DNA of 64,000 bases from positions 111,844 to 175,843 of the forward strand of contig DBRB01000003.1 of assembly GCA_002305475.1 (NCBI GenBank). The letters are read 5' to 3'. The notes under the pieces are model-generated. The model ran no database searches and was not told the origin of the DNA. It was given only the letters and a program-made list of their open reading frames with translations. Below, in pieces: positions 9,065-38,154 of the stretch (the first letter of the stretch is position 1; every line of letters starts with the position of its first letter). A program made the translations under genes and the position numbers. The stretch comes from a candidate division WWE3 bacterium UBA1379 (GTDB taxonomy: Bacteria > Patescibacteriota > WWE3 > UBA101185 > UBA10185).

Positions 9065-9183
9065 TTTTCCTCCTAATAAATATTTATGTATGTCTATATG
9101 AAACACTATCATAGAAGCGGATAGTATTTCAAGACGCAGGTATATGTATGATACATTTAGATGAGTAGGTTGTTAGATCTGAT

Positions 9184-10725
9184 ATGGACATCTGTAAGAG
9201 AAATATTTTAATATTTTTTGGTATATCGATTCTTCTTTTCACATTAATGTTTCCCCTTTCTTATTCGATCTCATTTATCCAAAATGATGAATGGGTACAT
9301 TACCTGGTTTTAAATAATTTTCTGGGTGGAAATTTTTCCCTGCATCCCAGAATAGGTTCAACATTTTATACACAGGGTATCCTGGCATATTTGTTTTCTT
9401 TAATCTGGTCCGTGGAAAGAATTCCCATCCTTACCCTATTTATATCTGTATTAAATTTTTATCTTACAGCATTAATTGTTCTCGTAAGGATGAAAAAAAG
9501 CCTTCTTATTTCCATCATAAGCGGATTATTTATTCTACTAAATCCTATCCATGTCTATTCACAATGGGGATTTATGACGGAAAACTACTTCCTGTTTTTC
9601 TTTCTATTATCACTGTATTTCAGTTTCGGATTTTTAAGTAATAATAAGTTTAATAACTTTTTCTTAGCTAATCTTTTTATGATCTTAGGTTTTTTCATCA
9701 AACAGTATGGATTGGTTCTGCCTGTATCATTCTCTTTTGCACTATTTGTTAAAAAACAATATAAACATGCAGTTATTCAATTTGTATTATCCGCAGTTCT
9801 ATTTCTTTTTTACAAAACATTATTCCCCATTACTCCTATAATGGAGAATCAGAGTTTAAGTTTTGATCATATATTTAACCTTAAATATATGGTTTCATAT
9901 TCTGCTGGGATTATGGTTTATTTATGTGCTTTTGTTCTTCCTTTAGTGTTTTCAGCTTCACTTAAAGGTTTATCCAGATCAAAACTGATAATTTCAGGAA
10001 TATTATCCCTCATATTATTATTTCTTCTTTTAAGTTTTTTTGATCGTTTGCAGTTTGAAAAAAGAGAATTTCCTTACTTTGAAAATACATTTGAGAGAAA
10101 TGGCTTTTTTACCATTGATATAACGGGATCCAAATACCCCCTTCCTTATGTGGATAATATTTTTAACTTATGGGAAATTATATCTTTTATTGTATTGGTT
10201 ATCGGGTTACCTCTTATACTTATGCGAAGAAAAGTGAATGATCCGGTATTTGTTCAACTGGGTTCCTGTATTCTTTTGTATTTTTCTTTCCTTTTACTGT
10301 CACCTATGTTATACGATCGATATCTTCTTCCTTTGGTTCCGTTATTTATTCTGATTGTTGTATTACCGCATCAATCGTTTTCAAAATCATCAATAAGTGT
10401 ATTTATGGCTTTTCTCATATTTCTGTTTTTTTTGAATTATCAATTCTCCATGGATTTTTTGGGACGGAATAATTACACCTGGCAGAAATCGGAGTCATTA
10501 TATAATTCAGGAATATCAAAAACTGATATAAATCCCGGTCATTCGTGGCGTATGCTTTCTTTGGACGAAGAACAAGTTGAACGTTGGGATTATATCTTCC
10601 GATATGATCCCATCAGTAAACGTCCGAAAGATATCGGGGATTGGGAAGTAATAGAAACTTATGAAGTGAAGTATCCGTTTAATATGTTTGAAGACCCATA
10701 CATCTATTTGTATAAACGGTTGTAA
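9184..10725 (+). CDS. polytopic membrane protein, putative GT-C-fold glycosyltransferase (paralog of 20877..22412)
   Basis: At least 10 TM helices are predicted. The motif FIQNDEWVHY directly after TM1 is a DE motif in the first outer loop, as in ArnT/PMT. It shares long stretches with 20877..22412 (NPIHVYSQWGFMTENYFLFFFLLSLYF versus NPLNIYSMWGFMSENYFLLFFLISVYF). Confidence 0.5.
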   Translation: MDICKRNILIFFGISILLFTLMFPLSYSISFIQNDEWVHYLVLNNFLGGNFSLHPRIGSTFYTQGILAYLFSLIWSVERIPILTLFISVLNFYLTALIVLVRMKKSLLISIISGLFILLNPIHVYSQWGFMTENYFLFFFLLSLYFSFGFLSNNKFNNFFLANLFMILGFFIKQYGLVLPVSFSFALFVKKQYKHAVIQFVLSAVLFLFYKTLFPITPIMENQSLSFDHIFNLKYMVSYSAGIMVYLCAFVLPLVFSASLKGLSRSKLIISGILSLILLFLLLSFFDRLQFEKREFPYFENTFERNGFFTIDITGSKYPLPYVDNIFNLWEIISFIVLVIGLPLILMRRKVNDPVFVQLGSCILLYFSFLLLSPMLYDRYLLPLVPLFILIVVLPHQSFSKSSISVFMAFLIFLFFLNYQFSMDFLGRNNYTWQKSESLYNSGISKTDINPGHSWRMLSLDEEQVERWDYIFRYDPISKRPKDIGDWEVIETYEVKYPFNMFEDPYIYLYKRL

Positions 10726-10783
10726 TGGGTATTAGTACTATAGTTACATTATCCGTAATTGCATTGTATAATTTGTTAGTTAC

Positions 10784-12118
10784 ATGAAGCTGTTAAAATT
10801 AAGAAACAATCTTATTGTTCAGGCACTTATTGTATTTATAATATTTTTCATCGCATACCTATCTAATCTTCGTTACGATTATTTCAAGAATCTAGAAACA
10901 CATTCTCCCAGGCGACTTATGACTTCCAGAGATTATGTCGGTAATACATTTCTTCCGTATCTGATCATTAAAAAAGGCACGTTTAATTTTGCAGATGATT
11001 TAAAGGTTATAAATAAATACATCCAGGGAAAACCATACTATGTGATAGACGTCAATGGAGGTTATTATGGTAAGTATCCCGTGTTTACAGGAGTATTAGC
11101 TGTACCGATATATCTAATTCCCGTGATCCTAAAAATACCACAACTTGAAACTATGCTGGATGTTTATAAAATTCTAGCGCTTGGTAGAATTGCTGCCTCT
11201 TTTTATACTGCTCTTTCAGTCGCAATCTTATACATGATTATTAGAAAATTATGGGATAAAAATAATTACGGTATATTTCCATTTCTATTTATAACTGCAT
11301 ATGCTCTTGGTACAAATGTATTATCCATAGCTAGTAGAGGGTTATGGCTTCATACCAGTTCGATATTGCTTATCAGTTTAGGGATTTTACTTATGGTATT
11401 AAGCATCAAAAACCCGAAATACATTCCATTTCTAAGTCTAATTGCCGGACTGTCCGTTATCGCCAGAACTACAAATATATTTTTTGCTGCCACGTTGTTT
11501 TTATATGTACTACTTCATTATAGGAAGTATTTGATAACATTCATTCTTTTTACCACTCCTACGGTAATCCTGTATTTTCTGCAAAACAAATTATTATATG
11601 GGGATTTTTTTCTGGAAGGATATCAGCTAAATGACAAAATTGAGTTTGTGACACCGCTTTTTGATGGTTTACATGGTCTGTTGTTCAGTCCCGGAAAAGG
11701 TTTTTTGTTTACGACTCCACTAATGTTTATAGGTATCATCTATATGATATTTTTCTATATATTGAGACTTCAGAAAAACGATATGGATGAAAAGAAGAGG
11801 TTAATGGCATATTTAGGTATTGTGTTTTTATGTGGTTTATTATTAAATGCGAAATGGCGGGACTGGCATGGGGCTGACAGATTCGGGCCTGCCTTATTAA
11901 CGGAGTTTTTGCCCATAACCGCGCTATTCAGTTATGATTTATTTGATAAATTTATCAGACGGAATAAAGTTCTTGCCTTATCAATATTCGTGATCATCTC
12001 TCTATATAGTATGTATGCACATGTAAATACAGTTCATTTCCGTAAGTCACGTTGTTCAGCAGATCATGTATGGACTTTTTACTGTCTGACAAAACCAAGT
12101 AAAGAATTGTTATATTAA
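10784..12118 (+). CDS. polytopic membrane protein, possibly GT-C-like
   Basis: The 444-aa protein has more than 10 TM helices and is co-directional and adjacent to GT-C genes. No clear DE motif was found. Confidence 0.4.
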   Translation: MKLLKLRNNLIVQALIVFIIFFIAYLSNLRYDYFKNLETHSPRRLMTSRDYVGNTFLPYLIIKKGTFNFADDLKVINKYIQGKPYYVIDVNGGYYGKYPVFTGVLAVPIYLIPVILKIPQLETMLDVYKILALGRIAASFYTALSVAILYMIIRKLWDKNNYGIFPFLFITAYALGTNVLSIASRGLWLHTSSILLISLGILLMVLSIKNPKYIPFLSLIAGLSVIARTTNIFFAATLFLYVLLHYRKYLITFILFTTPTVILYFLQNKLLYGDFFLEGYQLNDKIEFVTPLFDGLHGLLFSPGKGFLFTTPLMFIGIIYMIFFYILRLQKNDMDEKKRLMAYLGIVFLCGLLLNAKWRDWHGADRFGPALLTEFLPITALFSYDLFDKFIRRNKVLALSIFVIISLYSMYAHVNTVHFRKSRCSADHVWTFYCLTKPSKELLY

Positions 12119-12122
12119 TATT

Positions 12123-13580
12123 ATGAGTATTATGGGAATTAAGAATTCTAAAATTGAAATAGTATTTTTTATTCTACTAGCAGTAATATCTGCGATTCCC
12201 CGGTTTACACAGCTAGGATATTCTCATTTCTATGGTGATGAAACAAAAGCCATGTATGTGAAGAAAAACTTCTCGGCAACAGAGTTTTTTTTCAATCAGA
12301 GAAAGGGTCCGATGCAGGGATTGATCAGCTGGTTAACGGAAAAAGTATCAGGAGGTTTTAGTGAAAGAGATATGAGAATACCTTTTGCTATCAGCGGATT
12401 TCTCTCTGTAATTTTATTCTACTTTATTGTTCGTGCAGCAATAAATTGGCAAACCGCAGCTGTGAGTTCATTCCTGTTTTCTTTAAACGGGTTTTATTTA
12501 GCATTTAGTAGGACAGTGCAGTATCAAAGTTTACTCTTATTCTTCGGATTGTTCTCCATACTACTATGTGTACTCATATCAAAAACTGCTAATCAGCGAT
12601 TAAAAATTCATTTGTTGATAGGTGCTGGTTTATTTATGGGTTTGAGCTTTTTAACTCATTATGATGCTGTATTCTTTATGGTTCCCTCAGTACTGCTTCT
12701 ATGGAGTGGCGGTAATAGGATCCGAAATATATTTATTTATGGTGCTACTACTGCAATTATGGCTTCACTTTTTTATGTTCCATATATTTTCAAAGGGTTT
12801 TTCTACTTCAACACCAGCATCTATATGATAAACCGGTTTGCAGGTATCGACTCCCTGCCCAATAACAGTCTTTTTACCTATAATGTATACAATCCTTTTT
12901 ATATAACTTTTGCATTTGTTGTATTTATCATCATGGCACTTCTCAGACTGCATAAGAATTATATTGTCAGAATTACACTTGTCTGGTTTTTAGTTCCATT
13001 TGTGGCATTTGAAGTGGTGTTTTCCAACCCCGGTACGCATATTCATAATTATGTTATTCCGCTGTTTATATTTGCTGGATATGGAGTGTATCTTGTGTAC
13101 TGCTATTTGAAAAACAAAATAGTGAGGTCGGTATTTTCCTTTGTTGTAGTTGCTGCTTTAGCACTGATAACTACCATAGGTTATTCATTGTATATTCCCG
13201 CATTTCACACCGGTTATCCCTGGAAACAGTCAAAGTTTCTGACGATGGATATTCCTGCCGTAGATAGAAATACATTTCAATTATTTATATATGGATTCCC
13301 ATATTACAGAGGATGGGATCAGGTTAGAAATTTTGTATTTAACCAAAAAGCAGAGTTAGCGAGAAACTTTTCCACTAATGATAATGTGACGGTGGCTGAA
13401 TACTATCTATCTCCACTGCTGGCATATCATGCTAAACCGCAGTTCTATATCTATGTAGTGGACGGTATGCTTGCAAAACCAAAACTACCTGAAACCGAAG
13501 ATATATTTACGTACTTTTTAATGAAAGAAATTATGGTAGACGATGAAGTGACCGCCCAGATCTATAGAAGAATCATTTAG
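12123..13580 (+). CDS. GT-C glycosyltransferase, ArnT/PMT_2-like (GT39/GT83-type); paralog of 15823..17310
   Basis: The motif YGDETKAMYV...NQRKGPMQGLISW...RIPFAISGFLSVILFYFIVR matches the ArnT/PMT_2 pattern (DEa.Y...KPPL.YWl...RLPSAL.G.L.VLL.Y). Its paralog carries KDEH...SQRKGPMQVFVSY. Confidence 0.6.
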   Translation: MSIMGIKNSKIEIVFFILLAVISAIPRFTQLGYSHFYGDETKAMYVKKNFSATEFFFNQRKGPMQGLISWLTEKVSGGFSERDMRIPFAISGFLSVILFYFIVRAAINWQTAAVSSFLFSLNGFYLAFSRTVQYQSLLLFFGLFSILLCVLISKTANQRLKIHLLIGAGLFMGLSFLTHYDAVFFMVPSVLLLWSGGNRIRNIFIYGATTAIMASLFYVPYIFKGFFYFNTSIYMINRFAGIDSLPNNSLFTYNVYNPFYITFAFVVFIIMALLRLHKNYIVRITLVWFLVPFVAFEVVFSNPGTHIHNYVIPLFIFAGYGVYLVYCYLKNKIVRSVFSFVVVAALALITTIGYSLYIPAFHTGYPWKQSKFLTMDIPAVDRNTFQLFIYGFPYYRGWDQVRNFVFNQKAELARNFSTNDNVTVAEYYLSPLLAYHAKPQFYIYVVDGMLAKPKLPETEDIFTYFLMKEIMVDDEVTAQIYRRII

Positions 13581-15108
13581 TCAGAGTACCGATATATAAT
13601 AGTGGTGCATTTTCTCTTTTAATCTCCCCAAGAATATTTAATTTCATATCCCTTTGTTTTGTCCTTTCGTAATCACATAGAATCAGATCAGCATCCCTTG
13701 ATTCATTCACCATCTCAAAACTTCCCTTTCCAAAGTACCATACAGAATTTGATACATTACAAGGGTATACTTTTAAAACTTTTGGAAATTCTTTGCGGTG
13801 ATCAATAACCCACTGCGTTCCCTCTTTATACGAGGCACCCCAGTAGTCGGTTTCGTATGCATCATAAGTGTTTTTAAGTCCTCCTGTTAATTCATTGAAA
13901 TATATGTATTCAAAAGGGTGCAGATGAATCATCCTGATAAGAGTGAATAGCAGATAAATGGTGAAGATGGATACTACTGTAATAAATAATTTACGATTGT
14001 TTGTTGAATATAAGTCATTAAGAAATATTACGGCTAACATGATAAAAATGGGAACTAAAAAGAGAAAATGACGGATACCGTTATATATTATCGGATTGAT
14101 GGAAAAATAAACAGTGAAATTAATCAATACAGAAATAAGTAGTAAAAAATATATGGGTATTTTTATAAACCTCTTAACATAGATCACAGACAGTATTAAA
14201 GGTATTAATGTGTGTAGTGGTGTGGTGATAAGAAACCAAATAGGAAGATAAATGATCGGATGATTATATTTATCCAACATACTTCCCATGAATAGAATTT
14301 CATGATTCCATAGATCAAATGTTGAGGATACTGCGATAAGTCGGATGAAATTTCTTACCGGAGATTCCCACAAACTGGGAAGAAATCCCACCATAACTAT
14401 GATTGATCCGATTCCTACAAAGATAGTGCTATATGTGGTTTTCATCAGGGATTTTTTAATATTATCCAAAGTTAAACTGTCTTTTAATCCCATCTTAAGG
14501 TTAAAGACCGCATATATAATTAAGAGTGTAAGTCCTAATATCCGGGTGCTTTGCGTTATTCCTATTAATACTGCTAAGCTTAAATATTCAATGATGGGTT
14601 TATTCTTAGTTGTTCCAAAGTAATATATTGCAAAAAGACTGAGAGTATACATAATGGCAAAAGGTATATCTTTAGGGTTACCCGGAAGATCACCTGTAAA
14701 TCTAGGGGTGAGAAATAAAAGTAGTACTGCGGATATAGCAGCAAATTTACTTTTAAGAGCCTTATATATAAAAAGATAGATTAATATGAAAGCTGCAGAT
14801 CCTAATATCAGATTGATCAGGTGATTCCATTCATAATAGTTTTTGGTATTGATTAATATATGTATCAGAAGATGAGCGCGTGAATAAGGAGCTTCAAGAG
14901 GATTATAATTCCATCCCTTAGAATAAAGATAATCACGTGATGCATTATCAAATAACATCTGTTTAAGTAGTCTGGTTGAAATATATTCTGTATCTTCATC
15001 CGCTGTTATTCCAAAGTCCTTATAGAATAGAAATGATAAAACCAGATAAAAAACTAAGAATATAAAAATCGGGTAATGTTTTCTAATAATATTTATAATC
15101 ACCGTCAC
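13573..15108 (-). CDS. GT-C-like membrane glycosyltransferase; paralog of 23870..25426
   Basis: The motif ITADEDTEYIS follows TM1. The protein has more than 10 TMs, and its architecture matches 23870..25426 (YADEPEIAELA). Confidence 0.5.
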   Translation of the reverse strand: MTVIINIIRKHYPIFIFLVFYLVLSFLFYKDFGITADEDTEYISTRLLKQMLFDNASRDYLYSKGWNYNPLEAPYSRAHLLIHILINTKNYYEWNHLINLILGSAAFILIYLFIYKALKSKFAAISAVLLLFLTPRFTGDLPGNPKDIPFAIMYTLSLFAIYYFGTTKNKPIIEYLSLAVLIGITQSTRILGLTLLIIYAVFNLKMGLKDSLTLDNIKKSLMKTTYSTIFVGIGSIIVMVGFLPSLWESPVRNFIRLIAVSSTFDLWNHEILFMGSMLDKYNHPIIYLPIWFLITTPLHTLIPLILSVIYVKRFIKIPIYFLLLISVLINFTVYFSINPIIYNGIRHFLFLVPIFIMLAVIFLNDLYSTNNRKLFITVVSIFTIYLLFTLIRMIHLHPFEYIYFNELTGGLKNTYDAYETDYWGASYKEGTQWVIDHRKEFPKVLKVYPCNVSNSVWYFGKGSFEMVNESRDADLILCDYERTKQRDMKLNILGEIKRENAPLLYIGTLTK

Positions 15109-15197
15109 TATTTTACACTATATAAATCTATCCTTTAAGCAATAAATCTCCAATGCAAATACTTGCATATAAAATATATACCCTCTATGATTAAGCT

Positions 15198-15815
15198 ATG
15201 GGTGATAAGATTACCCGTCATTACCAGCCCAGAGGTAGTAAGGATAAACTGATAACCTCTAAAGAGAAAACCAGCGGAGCTGCAGCGGTTATTTCAAAAT
15301 TTCTCAGCACCAGTGAATCAGATGATCCAGAGACCATAATCGATATTAAAATAACCAATCCCCTAAAAAGAATCTATGAGTTAATACAGGAAATTAAAAA
15401 GCATCAGACTACTACCTTTAATCTGAAGTTTACTATTCCTCTTATTGCTTTACCTATATTTCTATTTGCGGCATTTAAAATTGGGCAAGGTCAGGGTGCC
15501 TGCCGGCAGTTTTATAAGTCAAAAACTGGGTTAGTAAGGGTGCTGAGTATTGATGTTCCGCAGGAATCTAAGGATAGAATTACTTTCTTATCATCTCTAC
15601 TATCATTCATTCCCTCTTTTGAACCGACAACATATTATATTGAGGAAAGCAGAACAATCTTAATTGACAATAATGGGAATACGACAACGATTTTACATCC
15701 TAAGTATATTAACTTTTCTCTGCTGGATAATAAGAAAGTAATAATTACAGGTGAATACTCTTCCTGTGCAAGTGTATTAAGTGTAGTATCAGAAAAGAAT
15801 GTGATGGAACTTTAA
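15198..15815 (+). CDS. hypothetical protein with one TM
   Basis: The 205-aa ORF has one central hydrophobic helix (IPLIALPIFLFAAF). No motif was recognised. Confidence 0.4.
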   Translation: MGDKITRHYQPRGSKDKLITSKEKTSGAAAVISKFLSTSESDDPETIIDIKITNPLKRIYELIQEIKKHQTTTFNLKFTIPLIALPIFLFAAFKIGQGQGACRQFYKSKTGLVRVLSIDVPQESKDRITFLSSLLSFIPSFEPTTYYIEESRTILIDNNGNTTTILHPKYINFSLLDNKKVIITGEYSSCASVLSVVSEKNVMEL

Positions 15816-15822
15816 GTATGAT

Positions 15823-17310
15823 TTATGGGTTTTCCACCCGATAAATTCTCACAACCGTTTCTCCGTTAATTTCAATCTCTTTTACAGTTCTTTTGTTTTT
15901 TATTTGAGGTGCTTTCCAGTCATTGACAAAACTTAACGGCTGTTTTACAGCTATGTAGTAATAAGCAGGAGTACTTGTCCCATATGAAGCATCCATATAA
16001 AAATTACTGGTGGATGCATCTTCATTGGTAATATATTTTAGATTCTCGTTATTGATCCTGTTTTGTTCATTGACGAATTCATTTATTTGATCCCAATCTC
16101 TACGCAATGGAAAACCGAATAAAGGTAGTACTGGGTAATCCTCATAATTAATTGTTTCATATTTACCCAGTATTTTTTCCTGTCTCCAAGGATACTCTAC
16201 CGTATGATCTACAAAAAGTATGTAGGTCTGATAGTAGAAGAAAGAAAAAAGAGCAAGAAAAGAAAGGATGATAACTCCTCTGATTAATTTCGGAGAATAA
16301 CAAAGTATTCTTTCAATGCCGATAGCACAAACTACCAGTGCCGGTATTACAAAATTATAGATATGGGTTCCCGGTTTAATAACAAAGAAATTGAACACCA
16401 GGTAAGTAAATACTGCCCAGCTTAAAAAGTAATAATTCTTTTTAATAAAGATACCTCCGATTGCAGTTCCTATGATCAGAAACCAGTAGAATACGAAAGG
16501 ATGATACAGTTCAATAAGAGTTCTTATACTATGGTCTTTCTCACCAACTCCAACCCTTCTGAATAAATAGCGTTGATTATCAGAAGATTCTAATTGATAC
16601 AAAATATATGGAATAAGATATGGCAGAAGAAGAAGGCAACCCAGCAGAAAGTTAATTACCAATACTTGTATTTTGTATTTAGTTTCATGTCGTTTATTAA
16701 ACAAGAATTGAGCCAAGATAATAGCTATTGGTAGGACAGCAAATACTGCATCCCAATGGGAAAGAATTGATAAACAGTAAAAAAATGTTCCTAGCAGGGT
16801 TTTAAAGAAAGTCTTTTTCCTGTCTTTTATATCAAGAAGGTCGCTATACAAGTATAGAGACAGAAAAGTAAATATAAGATTCAGATTTTGGTATTGAACT
16901 ATCCTACCAAAAGCTGAGACAAAACCGTTAACCAGATATAGCAAAGCTGAGATAAATCCTATCATGCGATTTTTGGTGAGTTTGGAAATCATTAGATAGA
17001 AAAATACTACTGAAGCAATATTAATTAATGCATATGGGATACGTTCTGCAAGTTCATTATGAAAATCATGGGTAAATAAATATGGTATATAGGATACAAA
17101 GACCTGCATTGGCCCTTTACGCTGTGAGATGAAAAATTGTACAGGTGACACTGTAACTCTGTGATCAAAAAAGGTCCTATGTTCATCCTTAACATAATCT
17201 GAATATCCTAAATTGATGAATCTTAGGGGGAGGGTTAATATTATCAACAATACGATGATAATCCATTCTTTTGTGACTATTCTCATTAAAGCATTAAATG
17301 AGTTTTTCAT
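15823..17310 (-). CDS. GT-C glycosyltransferase, ArnT/PMT_2-like; paralog of 12123..13580
   Basis: The motif GYSDYVKDEHRTFF...SQRKGPMQVFVSYIPY is present. The TM topology matches its paralog. Confidence 0.6.
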   Translation of the reverse strand: MKNSFNALMRIVTKEWIIIVLLIILTLPLRFINLGYSDYVKDEHRTFFDHRVTVSPVQFFISQRKGPMQVFVSYIPYLFTHDFHNELAERIPYALINIASVVFFYLMISKLTKNRMIGFISALLYLVNGFVSAFGRIVQYQNLNLIFTFLSLYLYSDLLDIKDRKKTFFKTLLGTFFYCLSILSHWDAVFAVLPIAIILAQFLFNKRHETKYKIQVLVINFLLGCLLLLPYLIPYILYQLESSDNQRYLFRRVGVGEKDHSIRTLIELYHPFVFYWFLIIGTAIGGIFIKKNYYFLSWAVFTYLVFNFFVIKPGTHIYNFVIPALVVCAIGIERILCYSPKLIRGVIILSFLALFSFFYYQTYILFVDHTVEYPWRQEKILGKYETINYEDYPVLPLFGFPLRRDWDQINEFVNEQNRINNENLKYITNEDASTSNFYMDASYGTSTPAYYYIAVKQPLSFVNDWKAPQIKNKRTVKEIEINGETVVRIYRVENP

Positions 17311-20300
17311 TGTATACTACCAATAATATGGGTGATAAAGAAAATCGGCAAGTCCCGGCGATTAACATCAGAGAGGTTGTAACTTTAATAATATTTTCTT
17401 TAATATTTTTATTTGTTTATAGATTTGATTATTTTTTCAGCGGAAAAATTGTTAAGGGAGGAGATCCAGAAGGGTTTTTCTATCCCTCTGCCTATTATCT
17501 TTATCAGCAATTAATTTCAGGAAAGTTTCCTTTTTGGACAGAACGGATATTTTTAGGTTTCCCTGCTTTCGCAATGTCCGAATTTGCTTATCTTAATCCC
17601 TTACGTATTATCGGTGTTTTGGTTTTTGGTCCTTTTGCAGTTTTTAAATTTGAACATATACTTTTTTATCTATTGGGTGTCATCGGAATATACGGAATAT
17701 TAAAAAAAACAGGTGTCAACATTTTGGGAATATTCGTCAGTATCATTACCTACTACTTTTCTTTTTTTCACATATACCGCACTATACATTTTAATTTTCT
17801 TCTCACCACATATCTATTGCCTATTAACATATTCTTAATATGGTCATTTATAACTTCGAATCGCCTAAGGTATTTATTAATTAATGCACTATTGGTATCA
17901 ATTACTATATATTATGGAAACTACAATGCAGTGGCATTATGTCTGATTCCTCAGATATTGTTGTTTGCTGTATATATAACCAAAGTTAAAATTCTTGAAC
18001 TGGTTAAAGGTTTAATGGTGATGTTGTTTTTTATTTCCATGTTTTCTATGCCTGCAATTATGTCAACATATTCTTTGTATTCTCAGAGCACACGGGGATC
18101 AGGAAATTTAAATTTTGTGGATGGATCAATAGCCCCCATACTATCATTATCTGTAGTTTATCCGTTTCTGTTAGGATACGGTGAAAATTTTATCGGTCAG
18201 ACGATAAATAATAATTATTATGAGCATGAAATCTACTTTTATTTCGGAATAGTGTCGGTATTATTAGCAATAATAGGTTATGTGTTTCAAGAGAGAAACA
18301 GTCGGGTTAGATTATTTCTATCTCTGAATATAGCAATATTTTTTATCTTTGGTTTTTTGGAATACTTGCCGTTTAAAACCCTGTTGAATGTCTTTCCGGT
18401 AAATCTTTTCAGATATTATGTCAGAACGTCCTTTTTAGGGTTATTATCTGTATCGATTTTTTCCGCAATTGGACTGCATATTTTAATCACTAATACAGAC
18501 TTTAAGCTGACAAAAACACGAATAATTCGAATACTTGTCTTATGCATTATTCCTTTCTATTATCTACTCTTGGATCTGATTAACCCCGGTCTAATTTATT
18601 CTAAGCAGATACTTGCTTTTATTATTAGAGGAGGTGCATTATATGAAAAAATTTGGTTCACCATTTTAGTTTCCTCTATTATTATTTTTGTGTTTTTCCT
18701 GAAACAAAAGAAATTTAGAAAAATATATACCGGTGTAATTATTTTTCTTGTTATTGCAGATTTGTATTTTTTTACCGGTATCGTTGGAAATGAGTTGTTA
18801 ATAGAAAAATATATACCGGATGCCCCTGAGTTAGGAAATACCAGGGTACTTTATACAAATCCCGAAATCATAGGTAATATGCCATTGTATTGGAATAATT
18901 GGAGTGTTTATGGCACATCCACCACTTTTGAATCTGGTTTGCAAAAAGAACTCTACAAATCTCATGGTTTAAAAAGTATAAGAAGATTTGATGATTCATT
19001 TCGCATGGATCAATTGCCAGCGTATTCCGAGAACCTGACCAAGCTAGGAATAGAAAAGGTAATCGTGGATGATAATACTGTTTTAGATTTAAACAATGAA
19101 AATAATGTTTTTGACAAAAGTATATATGGACTAACTGGAAACGTTATTGAAGCTGAAGAGGGTCATATTAAATATGAGATAGATAGTGATAAACGCCAGG
19201 AGATAACAACAAAAATAAAGAACTTTACCGGATGGAGAGTGTTTATAAACAATATAGAACGAAAAGTTACTTCTACTAAGGATGATCTGTTTATAAAGTT
19301 TTATCTGGACATGGGTAAAAATATAGTAGAAATGCAATACTTTCCCCTACCCTTATATAGAGGTTTACTTATCTCATTCTGTTTATTACTAGTTTATTTG
19401 TATTTTAGGTTAGTAAGACTGGATAAAATAAAAAAATTTATTCTATTTATTTCCATAGTACTATCTCTTGCTGTTTTTCTTTATAAATCCGATTACAAAT
19501 CAGTATTTACTGATGAGGTGCTGTATTTAGAATCAGGAAGAGAGTATCTGTCGGGTAATTTTGAAAACAATCTTCAGCACCCGCTTATTGGAAAATATAT
19601 TGCAGGGATATCCGATTTCACCAGATCAAGAGATTTATCAATATTAAGACTGCCGTTTGTTTTGTTATCCTTTGGCACAGCTATAGTGACTTTTATGATT
19701 ATAAGTCCTGTATATGGCTTTTATTTTGGCATATTAGGGATGCTTCTATACACCACAATGCCATTTACATATATCTCGGGGAGAATGATTCTTTTTGAAT
19801 CCCCTATGCATTTCTTCTGGTCATTGTTTCATCTGTATTTTCTGAAATACCTGAAAAACAGAAATTTGAAAACAGCACTAGTTGCAGGATTTTTTATCGG
19901 GCTGAGTATGGGAACAAAGTATACTTCTATTATTTTATATCCGTTTTCTTTACTAATAGTATTAATGGTATGTGGTAAGAAGATCAATATAAGACAATTA
20001 CTCACTATGTATATATCATCTGCGTTTGTATTCGGTATTACTTGGCTTCATATGGTAATAAAGTTAGGTATGCCATCATTGATTATCGCTGCCAAGGAAG
20101 CTAAGAATATATTTTTCGGAAGAAATGAGGAAGGAAAAATCCATGTTGTTAACGGTAAGTTATATGAGAAGTCTCCTTTTTGGTTCTATTTTTATTATAT
20201 ATACCATCAGTATAATCCTGTTCAAATGATAGTATCAGGGTTATCAGTATTGGCTGCTCTGTTCAGAAGAAAATATTTTGAGAATTACTGGTTGATATTT

Positions 20301-20858
20301 CTTCTATTTACGTTCGTATTTCATCAACTATTATCTTTGAAAAATGATCGTTATATCTCCTCACTTGAATTACCTTTGACAATTCTGATAGTGTCATTGT
20401 TTTATTATTTATACACCAGACTGAATAATTATAAATGGGTGGTGCTTATCCTAGTCTTGTCTCTTTTTATCTGGCGTACATTTGATTTGTTACAACTTAA
20501 ACCAGATAAATATAATGAATTACGAAATTACTTATCACAACAGACAAATGATTTTACTGACGGGCAAAGGTCATATATTTACGGCTCAATCAGGAGCGGG
20601 AGATGGACATTCGCAGATCTTCCCGATACAGTAGTCACCAGAAAAGACTTTTTAATAAAATGTGATTTTCCAAACTTCAACTACATAGTTTTTGATCAGG
20701 AAGAGTTGCTTAAATCAGATAAGAATGAATTGATGGATTTTGTTCAATTGAATAAAGTTAGGTTTAATTACACAGAGATTGGAAATTTTGATATTTACGA
20801 AAAGATAGAGGGGGAATCACCGGAAGTTGTAGATAAGGTTTTTTGTAAAGTTATTTAG
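17298..20858 (+). CDS. 1186-aa fusion protein: an N-terminal YfhO-like GT-C module joined to a C-terminal PMT/GT39-like GT-C module
   Basis: The N-terminal half carries FFYPSAYYLYQQLISGKFPFWTERIFLGFPAFAMSEFAYLNPLRII. This resembles the YfhO family pattern as recalled from memory, not checked against a model (lksGelPfWs..lglG......y...sPf). The C-terminal half carries DEVLYLESGREYLSGNFENNLQHPLIGKYIAG, which matches PMT-family DE...HPPLgK. The true start may be the Met at 17328, because 17298 overlaps the divergent neighbour. Confidence 0.6.
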   Translation: MSFSLYTTNNMGDKENRQVPAINIREVVTLIIFSLIFLFVYRFDYFFSGKIVKGGDPEGFFYPSAYYLYQQLISGKFPFWTERIFLGFPAFAMSEFAYLNPLRIIGVLVFGPFAVFKFEHILFYLLGVIGIYGILKKTGVNILGIFVSIITYYFSFFHIYRTIHFNFLLTTYLLPINIFLIWSFITSNRLRYLLINALLVSITIYYGNYNAVALCLIPQILLFAVYITKVKILELVKGLMVMLFFISMFSMPAIMSTYSLYSQSTRGSGNLNFVDGSIAPILSLSVVYPFLLGYGENFIGQTINNNYYEHEIYFYFGIVSVLLAIIGYVFQERNSRVRLFLSLNIAIFFIFGFLEYLPFKTLLNVFPVNLFRYYVRTSFLGLLSVSIFSAIGLHILITNTDFKLTKTRIIRILVLCIIPFYYLLLDLINPGLIYSKQILAFIIRGGALYEKIWFTILVSSIIIFVFFLKQKKFRKIYTGVIIFLVIADLYFFTGIVGNELLIEKYIPDAPELGNTRVLYTNPEIIGNMPLYWNNWSVYGTSTTFESGLQKELYKSHGLKSIRRFDDSFRMDQLPAYSENLTKLGIEKVIVDDNTVLDLNNENNVFDKSIYGLTGNVIEAEEGHIKYEIDSDKRQEITTKIKNFTGWRVFINNIERKVTSTKDDLFIKFYLDMGKNIVEMQYFPLPLYRGLLISFCLLLVYLYFRLVRLDKIKKFILFISIVLSLAVFLYKSDYKSVFTDEVLYLESGREYLSGNFENNLQHPLIGKYIAGISDFTRSRDLSILRLPFVLLSFGTAIVTFMIISPVYGFYFGILGMLLYTTMPFTYISGRMILFESPMHFFWSLFHLYFLKYLKNRNLKTALVAGFFIGLSMGTKYTSIILYPFSLLIVLMVCGKKINIRQLLTMYISSAFVFGITWLHMVIKLGMPSLIIAAKEAKNIFFGRNEEGKIHVVNGKLYEKSPFWFYFYYIYHQYNPVQMIVSGLSVLAALFRRKYFENYWLIFLLFTFVFHQLLSLKNDRYISSLELPLTILIVSLFYYLYTRLNNYKWVVLILVLSLFIWRTFDLLQLKPDKYNELRNYLSQQTNDFTDGQRSYIYGSIRSGRWTFADLPDTVVTRKDFLIKCDFPNFNYIVFDQEELLKSDKNELMDFVQLNKVRFNYTEIGNFDIYEKIEGESPEVVDKVFCKVI

Positions 20859-20876
20859 GACTGCTAGAATTTTTCT

Positions 20877-22412
20877 ATGCTTCATAAAAGCGAAAATAAA
20901 CTATTCATTACCAGCGTTATATTATTTATCTTGTTATTACCCTTGTCATTATCTATTGATTTTATGCAGAATGATGACTGGGTTTATTATCGGATGGTAC
21001 AAAATTTTCTAAATGGTGATTTTATACTTGATCCAATATCAGCACCCACATTTTATTTACAGGGTATATTAGCAGCGTTATTTGCATTGTTATTCGGAAT
21101 AACAAAACTACCTGTTCTCACTTTGCTTATATCAGTAATTTCTTTTTATGTATTAGGTATAATTTTAATAAAGAGATTAAATCGAAAATTCTCGGATTCT
21201 CTACTTCTCTCTCTGCTTTTTTTCTTCAATCCGTTAAATATATATTCAATGTGGGGGTTTATGTCAGAGAATTACTTTTTATTATTTTTTCTGATTTCTG
21301 TTTATTTTATCTTGGGTTATGAACAGACAGGACACAAAAAGGATTTTATATTAGCTAATATCTTTATTATCCTGGGATTTTTTATCAGGCAGGTCTCATT
21401 TGTATTATCACTTACCTGGGCTGTTTATTTAGTTTTAAAAAAGCAATACAAAACAGCAATAATTCAATTTGGAATATTTGTCGGCCACTATATTTTTTAT
21501 CTTTACTTATTTCCCAAAACAGCGGAAATGTATGAAAAACCTCTGCAGTTTAAACATATATTAGAGCTTAATTATTCGTATTCATTAATTTATTCGATGT
21601 ATATGTATATATGTGCTTTACTTCTGCCTGTGGTGTTAATACTTATTTACCGTACCGTAATGAGTGATAAAAAAGTAATCAAAGTAATCATTTTTATCGG
21701 GTTGAGTGTATTTGCATACTACCTACTAAATAAATTCTTTAACCCGTCTCATCTTGCCTGGGGAGAATTTCCATATCTGGAAAATGTATGGGAAAGAAGA
21801 GGTTATTATCCAAGAAGCATAGGGGGAACAAAGTATTATTTTTATGGGATATTTGACCTGTATAGATATTGGGAAATATCTGCAAAAATTACTGTATCAG
21901 GATTAGTAGCTGCGATACTATTTAATTTCAAAAAACTAATCAATTATCCTTTCATTTTTATGATTGGTTACTTTGGTTTGATGATAGTAACCGAAAAAGT
22001 TTACGATAGATATCTGACAGTATTAATACCTATGTTTATTTTATTTGGAATTACAATAATACAAAGGTTAGAACGTATTGATTTACTACTATTATTACCT
22101 TTTATACTGTTCATGATGTTTTATACATATCAGTTTTCAATGGATTATATTTTTTTAAATAAATATATCTGGGATAAAAGCAGAAATATCGTAAACACAG
22201 AAAATATTCTTCCCGAAAAAATTCAGGGTGCAAATGCCTGGAAACTAAATTACAGAAATGAATCCAGAGAATATCTATATGATTTCTCATATGATTCACC
22301 GGATATTAATGAAGGCTATAAAAAGATATATGATTTAAAAGAGATTCATGAGATTGATTATCCATTAAATTTCTTTATTGATTCCAAGGTTTATTTATAT
22401 AGAAAAAAATGA
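20877..22412 (+). CDS. putative GT-C-fold membrane glycosyltransferase; paralog of 9184..10725
   Basis: The motif FMQNDDWVYY follows TM1. The protein is largely collinear with 9184..10725. Confidence 0.5.
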   Translation: MLHKSENKLFITSVILFILLLPLSLSIDFMQNDDWVYYRMVQNFLNGDFILDPISAPTFYLQGILAALFALLFGITKLPVLTLLISVISFYVLGIILIKRLNRKFSDSLLLSLLFFFNPLNIYSMWGFMSENYFLLFFLISVYFILGYEQTGHKKDFILANIFIILGFFIRQVSFVLSLTWAVYLVLKKQYKTAIIQFGIFVGHYIFYLYLFPKTAEMYEKPLQFKHILELNYSYSLIYSMYMYICALLLPVVLILIYRTVMSDKKVIKVIIFIGLSVFAYYLLNKFFNPSHLAWGEFPYLENVWERRGYYPRSIGGTKYYFYGIFDLYRYWEISAKITVSGLVAAILFNFKKLINYPFIFMIGYFGLMIVTEKVYDRYLTVLIPMFILFGITIIQRLERIDLLLLLPFILFMMFYTYQFSMDYIFLNKYIWDKSRNIVNTENILPEKIQGANAWKLNYRNESREYLYDFSYDSPDINEGYKKIYDLKEIHEIDYPLNFFIDSKVYLYRKK

Positions 22413-22454
22413 GGGAGTATAAATCATAGATTCATACCCCCAATTGAATTTTAT

Positions 22455-22760
22455 TTAACTGTGATCATGATGACCATGAAATACGATGGCCTCTAAGGTT
22501 TCATTAGAAGTGAGTTTTCCTCCTGTGGAAATGAAATCCATAAGAGATAAATTTAAATGTTCCTCACAATCAGGAGTGAATCTGAATCTTATATCCTCAC
22601 CGACTTTTTGACCGTTATCATTCACCACTAAAGTGATAATATGCATGTGGTGTGGTTCTTCTTTTAATACCTGGCCAGCTGTGTCAAGTAAATCACTCAT
22701 CTTTTTGTGGGGATCGGGAAATTCTAATTTAAACCTTGGTGATGTAAACCTTATATGCAT
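22455..22760 (-). CDS. hypothetical protein
   Basis: The 101-aa ORF is His-rich at both ends (HHMHI, HGHHDHS). No motif was recognised. Confidence 0.4.
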   Translation of the reverse strand: MHIRFTSPRFKLEFPDPHKKMSDLLDTAGQVLKEEPHHMHIITLVVNDNGQKVGEDIRFRFTPDCEEHLNLSLMDFISTGGKLTSNETLEAIVFHGHHDHS

Positions 22761-23117
22761 GACACATCTTCTCCTTAATGCTGATTTGTATTATATTGTC
22801 TTTTCCTGAGAGATTAACCACTTAATATGGTTTATTAAAGTGTATGAGGGAATAGAATTAGAATCCACTAAAATTCATAGGAATACTGATGCTAAAATGT
22901 CCAATCATATATAAATCTATATATTTCAATGATAGAAGCTCGTATCCGATAATGACGAAAATGATAATCTATTTATAATGGTAAATGTACCTGAAGGAAA
23001 TTCCATAATTGGTATGAAATTTATACCTCTGATAATATAATACTCACTGTAAATCAGTGCGGTAATGACTGGAATGACTTCTATCTATCTTTATGTATTT
23101 GTGAGAAAGCACACAAA

Positions 23118-23864
23118 ATGAATATTAACGAATATAAAATAATGGCAGATCTCGAGAAGGAATATTGGTGGCATAAAGGAAAAGTACATCTGATTGAAGC
23201 AATGATAAAAAAGTATTTCGGATCAAATCGGGAAAATCCTATAGAAATAATGGAAATAGGATGTGGTACCGGCGGTGTAACATCAATCCTGCTTAATTAT
23301 GGCAATGTGACAGCCATTGATATATCAGAGGAAGCAGTAACTCTTAATAAAGAGTCAGGGGTTAAAAATGCTTTTTGCGGTGATGTTAATGATATGGATT
23401 TATCACCTTATGAGAAGAAATTTGATTTGATTCTAGCATTAGATGTATTGGAACATATACAGGATGATATAGAAGCCATGAGAAGAGTTCATTATATGCT
23501 TAAGGATAACGGAATGTTTTTCATTAATGTTCCGGCTCATAAATTTTTGTGGAGTGAGCATGATGAAGCTTTGCATCATAAACGCAGATATCATTCATTC
23601 GAAATGATAAGTAAATTGAAGGATACATCTTTCACCATCTTAAAGAAATCATACTTTGTAACTTTTACCTCTCCGATAATAATTCTTTATAGAATATGGG
23701 GTAATTTATTCGGGAAATCTGCCTATCCAAAAACATCATATGTAATGCTGCCAGAAATTATTAACAATTTTTTTATTAACATTTTGAAGTTGGAAGTAAA
23801 GATGGTTGAAAAATTTAATCTGCCCTTTGGTGTAACGCTTACCGTTGTTGCTCGAAAAAAATAA
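23118..23864 (+). CDS. class I SAM-dependent methyltransferase
   Basis: Motif I IMEIGCGTGG is present, as is the post-I acidic residue (AIDISEE) and motif II LILALDVLEH. Confidence 0.8.
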   Translation: MNINEYKIMADLEKEYWWHKGKVHLIEAMIKKYFGSNRENPIEIMEIGCGTGGVTSILLNYGNVTAIDISEEAVTLNKESGVKNAFCGDVNDMDLSPYEKKFDLILALDVLEHIQDDIEAMRRVHYMLKDNGMFFINVPAHKFLWSEHDEALHHKRRYHSFEMISKLKDTSFTILKKSYFVTFTSPIIILYRIWGNLFGKSAYPKTSYVMLPEIINNFFINILKLEVKMVEKFNLPFGVTLTVVARKK

Positions 23865-23869
23865 TATCA

Positions 23870-25426
23870 CTATTTTTTCTTATATATGGTTACATCCGAC
23901 AACGGGATTAGATTAGGCTTTGGAAGTTCAAATACTTTTTCTAACTGATACTCACCTGAATAAACCACAGTATATTCGAACTCATCCCATCTACTGACAT
24001 AAAACGGGTATGCTTTACGAACTTCTTTTCTCTTAAAGTTTTCCATCGGTCTGGATGACAGAATTATATAATCATAACCGATGGGATATTCCGGCATGAA
24101 AAATTGAGCGGACTCGGAAGTATATACCTGATATCGGATAACTCTTGCACCGGGTAGTTTATTCATCGGATCCAGCCCTTCTTCTGTATAGATCAGTTTA
24201 TTTGCAGAAGTCGGTACATTATCCCTCATCCAAAGATATGCTTCCGATTTTGGTGTGTGTCTTTGAAATTGAAAAAGAAGCAATGTTGGGAAGTAAAGAT
24301 AAGTAATCAAAGTCATTATTCCTCCCGTAATAGCTGCAGCTTTTAAATATCCGTTATTTTCTTTTAGTAAATCCCAGATTCTGATAAATCCATAAGAAGC
24401 ATACACCATTACAATTGGAATAATCGGTAGTAGCCAACGGTCTACTCTTCTGGACTGTATGGAGTAAAACAGAAGATAGAAAATTATGTGCCCTATTAAA
24501 AAGATGTGAATGGGAAATATTTCATTATTCTTTTCCTCTTTTATTTTGATGTAAGTTCCGTAAATAGATGAAATCAAAATAGGTATGGTAGATATAAATC
24601 CAAGGGCAAAAATATATTTGAATGGGTTTGAATCTACCGAATCAAAAACCATACCCGCTTCTTTAAAAAGCATCTCATAAATTCTAAAAACAAAATTATT
24701 GGCAAATATAAGGGCAAACGGATTGGTGATAACAAAAACTCCGTATATGAGAAAAAGAAAACCAAACATACCCCTGGGATCTTTTCTTTTTACATAGAGA
24801 TAAATGTATAAAGGTAATGTTAGTAAAGCCGTAATTTTTGTACCAACAGCCAGTCCGACAAGAAGACCATTAAACCAGGTATATCTAGATTTTTGAGGAT
24901 TTTCATAGTACAAGAGTGCAGAAACAAATGAGAGTGATAATAAAATAGTAAGTATTATATCTGCATTAATATAGTGAGCATGCACGATTAGTTTCCAGTT
25001 AAGAGTAGTAAGAATGAAAGATATAAAGGCAACCTTTTTATTTTTAGTGAGTATCCATGCTATAAGAGATGTAACAGGCATTATTGATAGTGAAAGAATT
25101 GAATTAATTACACGCATAAAGACATAAAGCGTGGTTTTATCAAACGATATATTAAAAAGATTCAAACCTTTACTAAAAAGCATTACTGTAATGGTGAAAA
25201 AGTATGAGGGAAAAGAACCGTATACATAAGAGATGGGTATCAGTTTGTAGTAGTCCTTTTTTTCAACAATACTTCTGATTTCATAAGTATATTTTATGGC
25301 CAGTTCTGCAATTTCCGGTTCATCAGCATAAAAACTATGAGGAAGACCAAATTCTATATGCCACAACCTAAAAAATATTCCGAGGAGAGATATTAATAAT
25401 ATGATTAAGAGGATGCTTTTCCTCAT
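23870..25426 (-). CDS. GT-C-like membrane glycosyltransferase; paralog of 13573..15108
   Basis: The motif FYADEPEIAELAIKY follows TM1. The 518-aa protein has more than 10 TMs. Confidence 0.5.
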   Translation of the reverse strand: MRKSILLIILLISLLGIFFRLWHIEFGLPHSFYADEPEIAELAIKYTYEIRSIVEKKDYYKLIPISYVYGSFPSYFFTITVMLFSKGLNLFNISFDKTTLYVFMRVINSILSLSIMPVTSLIAWILTKNKKVAFISFILTTLNWKLIVHAHYINADIILTILLSLSFVSALLYYENPQKSRYTWFNGLLVGLAVGTKITALLTLPLYIYLYVKRKDPRGMFGFLFLIYGVFVITNPFALIFANNFVFRIYEMLFKEAGMVFDSVDSNPFKYIFALGFISTIPILISSIYGTYIKIKEEKNNEIFPIHIFLIGHIIFYLLFYSIQSRRVDRWLLPIIPIVMVYASYGFIRIWDLLKENNGYLKAAAITGGIMTLITYLYFPTLLLFQFQRHTPKSEAYLWMRDNVPTSANKLIYTEEGLDPMNKLPGARVIRYQVYTSESAQFFMPEYPIGYDYIILSSRPMENFKRKEVRKAYPFYVSRWDEFEYTVVYSGEYQLEKVFELPKPNLIPLSDVTIYKKK

Positions 25427-25513
25427 AGAGATATTATAACCTTAATTTTGAAAAACTATTTAATAGAAAAAATAAATCCCCGCCTGATATTACATTGGCG
25501 GGGTTAATAATTT

Positions 25514-25935
25514 TTAAGGATCTGAAATTATCGTTACAATAACACACTGGACATATTTACTTTCTTTTAAGTTGGATCGTTTATGAACACCAGGTATCTG
25601 GTTTTGTTTGAGATCCTTTCCATCTACGCCAAAGCATTTTCTAGTTCTCATAATTCTGACGCAATATCCACTCGTATTGTTTGTACATACTATAGCCTCG
25701 GTGTTGATCCAAACAGTACCTTCTATTCCAAATCTTAATGCATCAGGTTGTACATACGCGACTTCATTTATTTTTAATTGACTCAAATTAAAATATTCAA
25801 TTTTTGCTGTACTTCTCCTGCCACTATTTAAAGGGATCGGATCTCCGATAAAGTGTTTTTCACAGAGAATACCTGATTTTATATCTATGCCGCAATGAAC
25901 ACACTTGCCATTGTCGAATATTTTTCTCCGTCCAT
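25514..25935 (-). pseudogene. probable frameshifted gene for a zinc-ribbon-containing small protein; the frameshift sits in a T5/A5 homopolymer at 25921..25925
   Basis: An ATG at 25933..25935 (minus strand) has a GAAAGGAG Shine-Dalgarno 6 nt upstream and begins MDGEK. After a -1 shift in the A5 run, the reading frame continues without a stop as IFDNGKCVHCGIDIKSGILCEKHF...RRSTAKIEYFNLSQLKINEVAY... into the annotated 90-aa ORF. That ORF would otherwise need a TTG start. Confidence 0.35.
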
Positions 25936-25979
25936 GTCTACTCCTTTCATAATTACGATAATTCCACTATTATGATGAT

Positions 25980-27422: not shown

Positions 27423-28331
27423 ATGCCGTTATTATCAACCATTATCGTAAATTACAACACAAAAGATTTACTTGAAAAATGTGTCAGAAATTTATTGGAA
27501 GTGTATCCTGATCAGGAAATTATTGTAGTGGATAACGGATCATCGGATGGTTCAGCGGATATGTTATCACTCGAATTTTCTTCTAAAATATCCTCTAATA
27601 AATTATGTCTGATAAGAGCTGAAAATAATGGTTTGGCATCAGGACAAAATCTTGGTTTAAAAAAAGCTGGCGGGAAATATATTCTATATATCGGTACTGA
27701 TGCTTTTCCAAAAAAAGGTGATATAGATGGGATTATTCAATACATGGATGAACATTCTGATGTGGGTATTGTTACACCAAAACTTGTTTTAAGAAACGGG
27801 GAGGTTGATATGCATGCACATAGAGGATTTCCTACTCCCTGGGCATCATTAACATACTTTTCCAGACTGTCAAAAATATTTCCTAAATCGCGTCTTTTTA
27901 ATCAGTACTATCTGGGATATCTGAATATGGACGAACCGCATGAAATTGATTTATGTATATCTCACTTTATGGTAGTAAACCGTAAAGTACATGAAATAAT
28001 CGGAGAATGGGATGAAAGTTTTTTCCTTTACGGTGAGGATGTGGATTTTTGCTACCGGACAAAAGAAGCCGGATTTAAAATCATGTACTTACCTAATTTT
28101 GAAGTTCTCCATTATAAAGGAGCAAGTGTTGGAATTCGAAAAGAGACACAGGATATATCCTCCGCTTCAGCAGAAACGAGAAAAAGAATGAAACTGGAAA
28201 CTACTAAAGCCATGAGAATATTTTATGAAAAACATTATTTGAAGAAATATCCCATGTGGTTAAACAGAATGGTACTGTTAGGAACGGATGTTCTGCGCTG
28301 GGCACGGATGAGAGGATGGTTTCTAAGTTAA
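27423..28331 (+). CDS. GT2-family glycosyltransferase with a GT-A fold (rhamnosyl/galactofuranosyl-transferase-like)
   Basis: The N-terminus TIIVNYNTKDLL...IIVVDNGSSDGS is present, as are a DxD-like YIGTDAF and the acidic motif YGEDVDFCYR. Confidence 0.8.
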   Translation: MPLLSTIIVNYNTKDLLEKCVRNLLEVYPDQEIIVVDNGSSDGSADMLSLEFSSKISSNKLCLIRAENNGLASGQNLGLKKAGGKYILYIGTDAFPKKGDIDGIIQYMDEHSDVGIVTPKLVLRNGEVDMHAHRGFPTPWASLTYFSRLSKIFPKSRLFNQYYLGYLNMDEPHEIDLCISHFMVVNRKVHEIIGEWDESFFLYGEDVDFCYRTKEAGFKIMYLPNFEVLHYKGASVGIRKETQDISSASAETRKRMKLETTKAMRIFYEKHYLKKYPMWLNRMVLLGTDVLRWARMRGWFLS

Positions 28332-38148: not shown

Positions 38149-38154
38149 GAATAT

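Follow-up and report, generated by a model that had tools for sequence, protein, structure and literature searches.

Can a single bacterial polypeptide contain two complete glycosyltransferases, or does a reading frame that seems to encode such a protein arise from two neighbouring genes joined in error? The question is raised by a 64,000-nucleotide (nt) stretch of DNA from the candidate division WWE3 bacterium UBA1379 (contig DBRB01000003.1, positions 111,844 to 175,843; hereafter the window). In it an earlier note, made from the letters of the DNA, had recognized a long open reading frame (ORF) that would join a YfhO-like and a protein mannosyltransferase (PMT)-like module, both with the glycosyltransferase C (GT-C) fold. 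We found that this ORF is real and that its single frame codes for two GT-C glycosyltransferases, both of them complete: an N-terminal module (N-module) related to YfhO and a C-terminal module (C-module) of the PMT_2 family. We consider it likely, at a rough probability of 0.7, that the protein is a genuine tandem fusion of a complete YfhO-like and a complete PMT_2 enzyme, both of which would be active on one surface acceptor.

The fused gene and its two modules

The ORF is unbroken over 1186 codons when counted from its first ATG (Table 1). In public gene calls the identical protein (P0001) has 1176 amino acids (aa), as M11 (nt 17328) is taken as its start. The alignments of homologs to the fused protein begin at approximately aa 22-30, and starts at 17298 and at 17328 are therefore both compatible with them. 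The first ATG overlaps the start of a divergent PMT_2 gene (15823-17310, minus strand) by 13 nt, and a start at the second ATG, the one called in the database, abolishes this overlap. Base composition is even along the whole fused gene, and, judging by the frequency of stop codons, a chance origin of a 3.5-kb open frame at ~31% GC would be far-fetched. A terminator scan of the gene found none internally, and the promoter-like sites found by a promoter scan were not clearly above those in shuffled controls. The two motifs quoted in the earlier note were located at aa 60-91 (FFYPSAYYLYQQLISGKFPFWTERIFLGFPAF, N-module) and at aa 739-770 (DEVLYLESGREY...HPLIGKYIAG, C-module). Its central claim, that two different GT-C modules share one polypeptide, was borne out: one is a relative of YfhO and the other a PMT_2 protein, both have the GT-C fold, and their family profiles are unrelated (hhalign probability 3%). 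Internal duplication as the origin of the two halves was rejected on this profile comparison and on the lack of BLASTP similarity between them.

The N-module is a distant member of the YfhO family according to profile, pairwise and fold evidence, as had been suggested, although Pfam does not recognize the family in the window protein itself. Neither the full protein nor aa 1-701 matched YfhO (PF09586), even at E <= 10, and Pfam and NCBIfam scans gave the N-terminal half no match of its own. We found approximately 100 stand-alone homologs of 660-735 aa, with ~30-34% identity spanning aa ~28-702. Pfam YfhO was matched by 37 of 70 homologs at E <= 0.01 (best 2.5e-16), and two of the first five exceeded its gathering threshold of 28.5 bits (P0003, 33.5 bits; P0004, 46.3 bits). 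A profile of 70 homologs retrieved 65 proteins from several phyla, mostly with PF09586 and several of them named "YfhO family protein" (best E 1.8e-37). When pairs of proteins were compared, BLASTP aligned the N-module with P0156, annotated as YfhO, over 372 collinear residues (E 8e-9); a further stretch, in the C-terminal domain, was also collinear. The AlphaFold2 (AF2) model of the N-module, with a predicted local distance difference test score (pLDDT) of 91.2 and a predicted template modelling score (pTM) of 0.92, is helical in its membrane core as far as aa 499, then forms a soluble domain rich in beta-strands (aa 500-683) and ends in a long helix (aa 684-709). A fold search with this model identified the fold as GT-C, and the parts follow one another in the order looked for in a YfhO relative, a GT-C core, an extracytoplasmic C-terminal domain and a C-terminal transmembrane (TM) helix. 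A search of solved structures with the N-family profile returned nothing relevant. D56, placed directly after the first TM helix (TM1) in the model, is invariant in alignments of 81 and of 70 N-family homologs and is a candidate catalytic base, a role taken by analogy from GT-C enzymes generally. E311, R372, R376 and other residues are likewise invariant in the 70-81 homologs, and the window N-module retains them.

The C-module is matched by Pfam PMT_2 (PF13231) at aa 761-897 with 42.2 bits (E 1.2e-10), or 43.8 bits when the C-terminal half is scanned alone, against a gathering cut-off of 26.1 bits. The earlier note had assigned it to PMT/GT39, and of this the PMT relationship, in the form of PMT_2, and the GT-C fold have held, whereas membership of GT39 has not: there is no match to PF02366 (true PMT/GT39), MIR or PMT_4TMC, and Pfam at E <= 1 reports PF13231 only. 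The C-module is thus PMT_2/ArnT-like and not a bona fide GT39 PMT. When 1.84 billion cluster representatives were searched exhaustively, many stand-alone homologs of 465-500 aa came to light that are 35-46% identical to it; their residues ~1-18 pair with window residues ~711-720, and the alignment runs on from there. The F-T-D-E motif (D739, E740) is invariant in 19 of 19 aligned C-family sequences, as are P762, K766, Y767, R784, R829 and others (alignment positions were shifted by 712 for window numbering), and all are retained in the window. We regard D739-E740 as a candidate catalytic pair by analogy with ArnT/PMT-type GT-C enzymes rather than by superposition. The AF2 model (pLDDT 88.0, pTM 0.88) has ~11 TM helices followed by a C-terminal alpha/beta domain. 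All 48 of the 48 best Foldseek matches in the Protein Data Bank (PDB) were GT-C proteins, among them STT3, ALG12, ArnT (TMq 0.59), AglB and Pmt4; a sequence search of solved structures with the C-module gave no relevant match.

The junction and the path of the chain

The two modules meet at Y702-F-R-L-V-R-L-D-K-I-K-K713 / F714-I-L-F-I-S-I-V, where the N-homologs end and the C-homologs begin (sequence of the junction region, within nt 19300-19550 of the window: GATAAAATAAAAAAATTT). The earlier note had placed a soluble linker of 150-200 aa between them. A soluble segment of this size does exist (aa ~500-683, 184 aa), but it belongs to the C-terminal domain of the YfhO family. It is present in every stand-alone ~685-aa N-family protein, where it is followed by a terminal TM helix and then, within 5-25 aa, by the end of the protein, and the Pfam YfhO matches of the homologs fall on model positions 770-835 of 835, that is, at the C-terminal end. 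The real linker consists of ~10 basic cytoplasmic residues that connect the last helix of the N-module to TM1 of the C-module. The outer beta domain gave weak partial fold matches to the carbohydrate-binding modules CBM6/CBM35 and to the beta-domain of glycoside hydrolase (GH) family GH127 (ranks 28-50). YfhO has been suggested to bear an extracellular carbohydrate-binding domain (PMC8035078), and the model-based matches hint at the same.

The models have ~14 TM helices in the N-module and ~11 in the C-module, ~25 in total. Taking the separate models of the two halves together with the positive-inside rule, we infer that the N-terminus is cytoplasmic, which would place both first loops and both soluble domains outside. 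The anchor helix at the end of the N-module would then lead the chain back to the cytoplasm, and the basic turn would run straight into TM1 of the C-module. It is this extra terminal helix of the YfhO family that allows head-to-tail fusion topologically.

As had been claimed, the junction is free of in-frame stops and internal starts. Across nt ~19410-19440 the two other frames are stop-rich and the coding frame is stop-free; from the end of the N-module to the DE motif there is no ATG, GTG or TTG, and the first in-frame GTG lies after D739-E740. In NCBI the region is part of a 187.7-kb contig, and the Logan assembly of SRR5321211 (72.7-kb contig) is 100% identical to the window across 9531 nt covering the whole gene.

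Relatives, gene pairs and neighbourhood

Both modules occur as stand-alone proteins. In a scan with one genome per species we obtained 14 loci with N-family genes, all from Patescibacteria-type metagenome-assembled genomes (MAGs; WWE3, Saccharibacteria, Moranbacteria) with one exception labelled Bdellovibrionales. At locus L022, a YfhO-like gene (frameshift-split) runs 8 nt into the gene for P0008, whose ATG lies within the overlap; P0008 is orthologous to the window C-module, with 39% identity. The tail of the YfhO-like product is ...YLIYRDKIRTNA, ending YRDKIRTNA before the stop codon. Where the window has ...RLDKIKK/FILFISIV, L022 has ...RDKIRTNA, the stop, and then MHKFLKNNWKLKLVIFIIS; the comparison therefore fits an in-frame deletion. 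Adjacent overlapping genes, a YfhO-like one followed by a PMT_2 one, would most likely have fused through such a loss, which would have removed the stop of the first gene and the start and ~12 N-terminal residues of the second. Stand-alone N-family genes also lie directly 5′ of, or are overlapped by, other PMT_2 genes at six loci (L005, L006, L012, L014, L015 and L019).

Some loci showed further features. Frameshifts split YfhO-like N-family genes into two ORFs in two unrelated assemblies (L022, 3899-6008; L013, 5893-7952), and these split genes are either pseudogenes or indel errors. At L021 (1-4114) there are two tandem 688-aa genes, one encoding P0014 and the other a product of the same length. 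L019 (6001-9523) encodes P0017, which of the stand-alone proteins is most closely related to the window N-module; a PMT_2 + TPR-repeat gene overlaps the P0017 gene by 14 nt, and a divergent GT87 gene lies upstream.

The earlier note had pointed to orthologs sharing the fusion as a check. None of the window type was found, and in their place there is a similar, conserved fusion family, here called family A, whose C-terminal partner is not orthologous to that of the window. In addition to the two proteins listed in Table 1, its members are P0094 (1193 aa), the N-truncated P0124 and P0133, and P0155. The C-halves of family A are just 51-69% identical among themselves, and the fused state has therefore been conserved through much divergence. 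Its N-modules are 27-28% identical to the window N-module and, in a neighbour-joining tree that is star-like and not robust, group together as a separate clade. The C-modules of the two fusions are remotely related (hhalign 95.7%, E 1e-8): BLASTP found no match between them, and a hidden Markov model of the window C-family misses the family A proteins, though it matches many other PMT_2 paralogs. At L007 there is a stand-alone N-family gene and, two genes away from it, one that encodes a stand-alone relative of the family A C-module. From these sequence relationships, the YfhO-like family was probably fused twice independently, in the window protein to another PMT_2-type partner than in family A. 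We also observed a protein of 1036 aa (P0218) that combines PF10131, a PTPS-related membrane family that we take to be GT-C-like, with PF13231 (PMT_2). If that assumption about PF10131 is correct, P0218 is a different tandem GT-C combination, and such proteins may be commoner than the literature suggests.

The fused gene sits within a dense array of GT-C paralogs at ~9184-27413, with two more at 36568-39672. The array comprises ~10 membrane proteins of 440-530 aa, encoded on both strands, 4-90 nt apart and mutually very divergent. Matches to PMT_2, PMT or GT87 were found for the genes at 12123, 15823 (minus strand), 20877 (weak), 23870 (minus strand), 25980 (weak) and 36568, and the products of those at 9184, 10784, 13573 (minus strand) and 38155, without a recorded Pfam match, resemble multi-TM proteins of the GT-C type. 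Neither module has a recent paralog among the flanking GT-C genes (best E 0.002, BLASTP). Further away in the window, the products of a glycosyltransferase family 2 (GT2) gene (27423-28331) and an EamA-family gene (30310-30732) may act as donor synthase and flippase in a three-component system. A methyltransferase is also encoded in the neighbourhood. At 33710-36564 a GH8 gene is followed, with a 4-nt overlap, by a cellulose-synthase-like GT2 gene, a pair that resembles a minimal bcs-type exopolysaccharide module; two GT-C genes come next. On the minus strand, a 170-aa MscS-type fragment (7975-8487; TM and beta domain only) overlaps by ~30 nt the start of an Fe/Mn superoxide dismutase gene (8456-9112) and may be a truncated mechanosensitive channel.

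Table 1. Features of the fused gene, of its surroundings in the window and of two related fusions (positions in the window unless a locus is named).
Feature	Position	Strand	Remarks
Whole fused ORF	17298..20858	+	1186 codons + stop; alternative start ATG 17328
N-module TM core	17361..18794	+	aa ~22-499; ~13 TM helices; divergent YfhO-family GT-C
D56, candidate catalytic base	17463..17465	+	invariant Asp; first extracytoplasmic loop of N-module
N-module outer beta-rich domain	18795..19346	+	aa ~500-683; AF2 secondary structure
N-module terminal TM helix	19347..19424	+	aa 684-709; AF2 model; chain returns to cytoplasm
Fusion junction LVRLDKIKKF	19410..19439	+	aa L705-F714; short basic cytoplasmic turn; A7 run 19430-19436
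C-module TM core	19437..20492	+	aa 714-1065; ~11 TM helices; PMT_2-family GT-C
D739-E740 of FTDE, candidate catalytic pair	19512..19517	+	first extracytoplasmic loop of C-module
C-module C-terminal extracytoplasmic alpha/beta domain	20493..20855	+	aa 1066-1186; model; conserved in stand-alone homologs
GT2 glycosyltransferase	27423-28331		302 aa; apparently soluble; ~7 kb from fused gene
PGA_cap/CapA-like protein	28328-29344 (minus strand)		
Small EamA-family protein	30310-30732		140 aa; four TM helices; ~10 kb from fused gene
Family A fusion	L008, 5198-8755		1185 aa; YfhO-like + PMT_2-like
Family A fusion	L009, 3265-6822		1185 aa; YfhO-like + PMT_2-like

Competing readings and known systems

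In the reading that we prefer, both modules would, like the characterised YfhO and PMT_2 enzymes of three-component systems (PMC8035078, PMC5836110), take sugars from polyprenyl-phosphate-linked donors at the outer face and transfer them to an extracytoplasmic acceptor. Both probably transfer sugars, because each keeps the residues that are invariant in its family. The fusion would fix the two active sites 1:1 and side by side, and the same surface polymer or protein would most likely be decorated with two different or successive sugars. The proposal of the earlier note, that one polypeptide could make two lipid-linked transfers in succession, would agree with this reading. Several observations weigh against this reading. 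No second copy of the window-type fusion was present in the searched collections (~15 billion proteins; 1.84 billion cluster representatives), and a metagenome scan with the junction region found no fusion, just one unfused relative of the C-module. Five of the six stand-alone C-module orthologs examined have no adjoining YfhO-like gene, and the partnership is therefore not obligatory. No clear CsbB/GtrB-type lipid-sugar synthase or GtrA-type flippase adjoins the fused gene, and the A7 run lies inside the junction.

These observations have to be set against three alternatives. In the first, two active modules are joined in a real fusion but work on unrelated acceptors or with unrelated sugars, the joining being the neutral result of a deletion between packed paralogs in a streamlined genome. 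The location of the gene among at least 8-10 densely packed GT-C paralogs, 4-20 nt apart, agrees with this, as do the singleton status of the fusion and the lack of linkage between most stand-alone C orthologs and YfhO-like genes. However, the same N-family is coupled to a PMT_2-like partner in a second fusion as well, which is conserved and probably independent, and YfhO-like genes repeatedly precede or overlap PMT_2 genes. Recurrent fusion and gene adjacency therefore point to a functional link and not to chance; it is because of them that we favour cooperative, successive transfer, and we regard action on unrelated acceptors as unlikely.

Alternatively, one module of a real fusion may be catalytic and the other may serve as a scaffold, a lipid-carrier-binding or an acceptor-binding subunit, which would make the protein a covalent pseudo-heterodimer. 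GT-C enzymes are often dimeric, as in Pmt1-Pmt2, EmbA-EmbB and the Pmt4 homodimer, and these dimeric enzymes are among our fold matches; in addition, the CBM-like beta domain of the N-module, if its weak matches are meaningful, could bind an acceptor. Such a division of labour seems improbable, since both modules keep all their family-invariant residues, including D56, E311, R372 and R376 in the N-module and D739, E740, K766, R784 and R829 in the C-module.

Least probable of the three is an artefact, in which adjacent genes were merged because a stop was miscalled or an indel was introduced into the A-rich junction, in sequencing or in the consensus, or a rare population variant entered the MAG consensus. 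An architecture found once among ~15 billion proteins, the A7 run, the frameshift-split genes at L013 and L022, which show that indels or pseudogenes occur in such data, and the probable derivation of both assemblies from the same reads would all suit it, but two assemblers concur at every base over 9.5 kb, and with A6 or A8 in place of A7 there would be an upstream stop, but the C-module would still lack an ATG, GTG or TTG ahead of TM1 and the DE motif. Two functional genes would not be regained through any simple single-base error, and the earliest alternative in-frame start lies downstream of the DE motif; moreover, the C-module keeps every residue that is invariant in the 19-sequence alignment. 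Conserved fusions with an equally tight junction exist in other lineages of Patescibacteria, and the architecture is therefore viable. The suspicion of a misassembled or fused gene pair, also raised in the earlier note, is thus unlikely to be justified.

Going beyond the cooperative reading of the window protein, we tentatively raise a broader one, for which the odds are clearly below even. In Patescibacteria, enzymes of the YfhO and PMT_2 types may be obligate partners in a two-enzyme machine that adds two different sugars in fixed order to one surface polymer or protein; its parts would be linked covalently in the window protein and in family A, and would associate without a covalent bond where their genes adjoin or overlap. 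If so, the terminal anchor helix of YfhO would be the structural enabler of head-to-tail GT-C fusions, and the recurrent independent fusions would be a Rosetta-stone signal of undescribed heteromeric bacterial GT-C complexes. The joined chain, the second conserved fusion lineage and the overlapping gene pairs together argue, at the least, that YfhO-type and PMT_2-type enzymes can cooperate. The surface chemistry of Patescibacteria is almost unknown, and their genomes carry large GT-C paralog arrays; the fusion offers a testable handle on their envelope glycosylation. The fused protein would also be a natural construct of fixed stoichiometry for structural work on GT-C heteromers. Its value is at present limited by the exact fusion being a singleton, with a predicted donor, acceptor and activity.

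Among known systems, YfhO (PF09586) is the GT-C enzyme of the three-component CsbB/GtcA/YfhO system, which adds N-acetylglucosamine to lipoteichoic acid in B. subtilis and S. aureus and to wall teichoic acid in L. monocytogenes (PMC5836110, PMC8035078). The window N-module resembles it in its multi-TM GT-C core, extracytoplasmic C-terminal domain and terminal TM helix, in profile and pairwise homology and in the GT-C fold. It differs in its length (~690 aa, compared with ~800-860 aa in YfhO), in lying beneath Pfam detection and in being fused to a second GT-C; in addition, no csbB- or gtcA-type neighbours were identified at the window gene, which comes from Patescibacteria, a group in which teichoic acids are not established. 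The GT-C enzymes of three-component systems have been described as single-module proteins, with YfhO-type and PMT_2-type enzymes as alternatives in different systems (PMC8035078), and our literature searches for tandem GT-C fusions found no description of one, which is not proof of absence.

Bacterial PMT_2 (PF13231) GT-C enzymes include ArnT and the GtlB/GacL/CsdD-type polymer glycosyltransferases (PMC8035078). The window C-module shares with these a Pfam match above cut-off, a D-E motif in the first outer loop, fold similarity to ArnT and a stand-alone size of ~475-500 aa. In contrast to them, it has no start codon or N-terminal tail of its own, being translated solely within the fusion, as its C-terminal half, and its sequence matched none of the solved structures detectably. 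The GT39 protein O-mannosyltransferases of eukaryotes and actinobacteria combine PF02366, MIR and PMT_4TMC. They resemble the C-module in the GT-C fold and the DE motif in loop 1, and Pmt4 and Pmt1/2 were among the fold matches, whereas the C-module has no PF02366 and no MIR and ends in a different C-terminal domain.

The closest counterpart is family A, which has an N-module of the same family, a length of 1185-1193 aa and the same succession of terminal helix, short basic turn and PMT_2-like TM1. It differs in that its N-modules fall in a separate clade, its C-module is remotely related and its modules are not orthologous to those of the window. Thus both enzyme families are known, and the tandem YfhO-PMT_2 architecture already exists, unannotated, in the databases, in family A and possibly in P0218.

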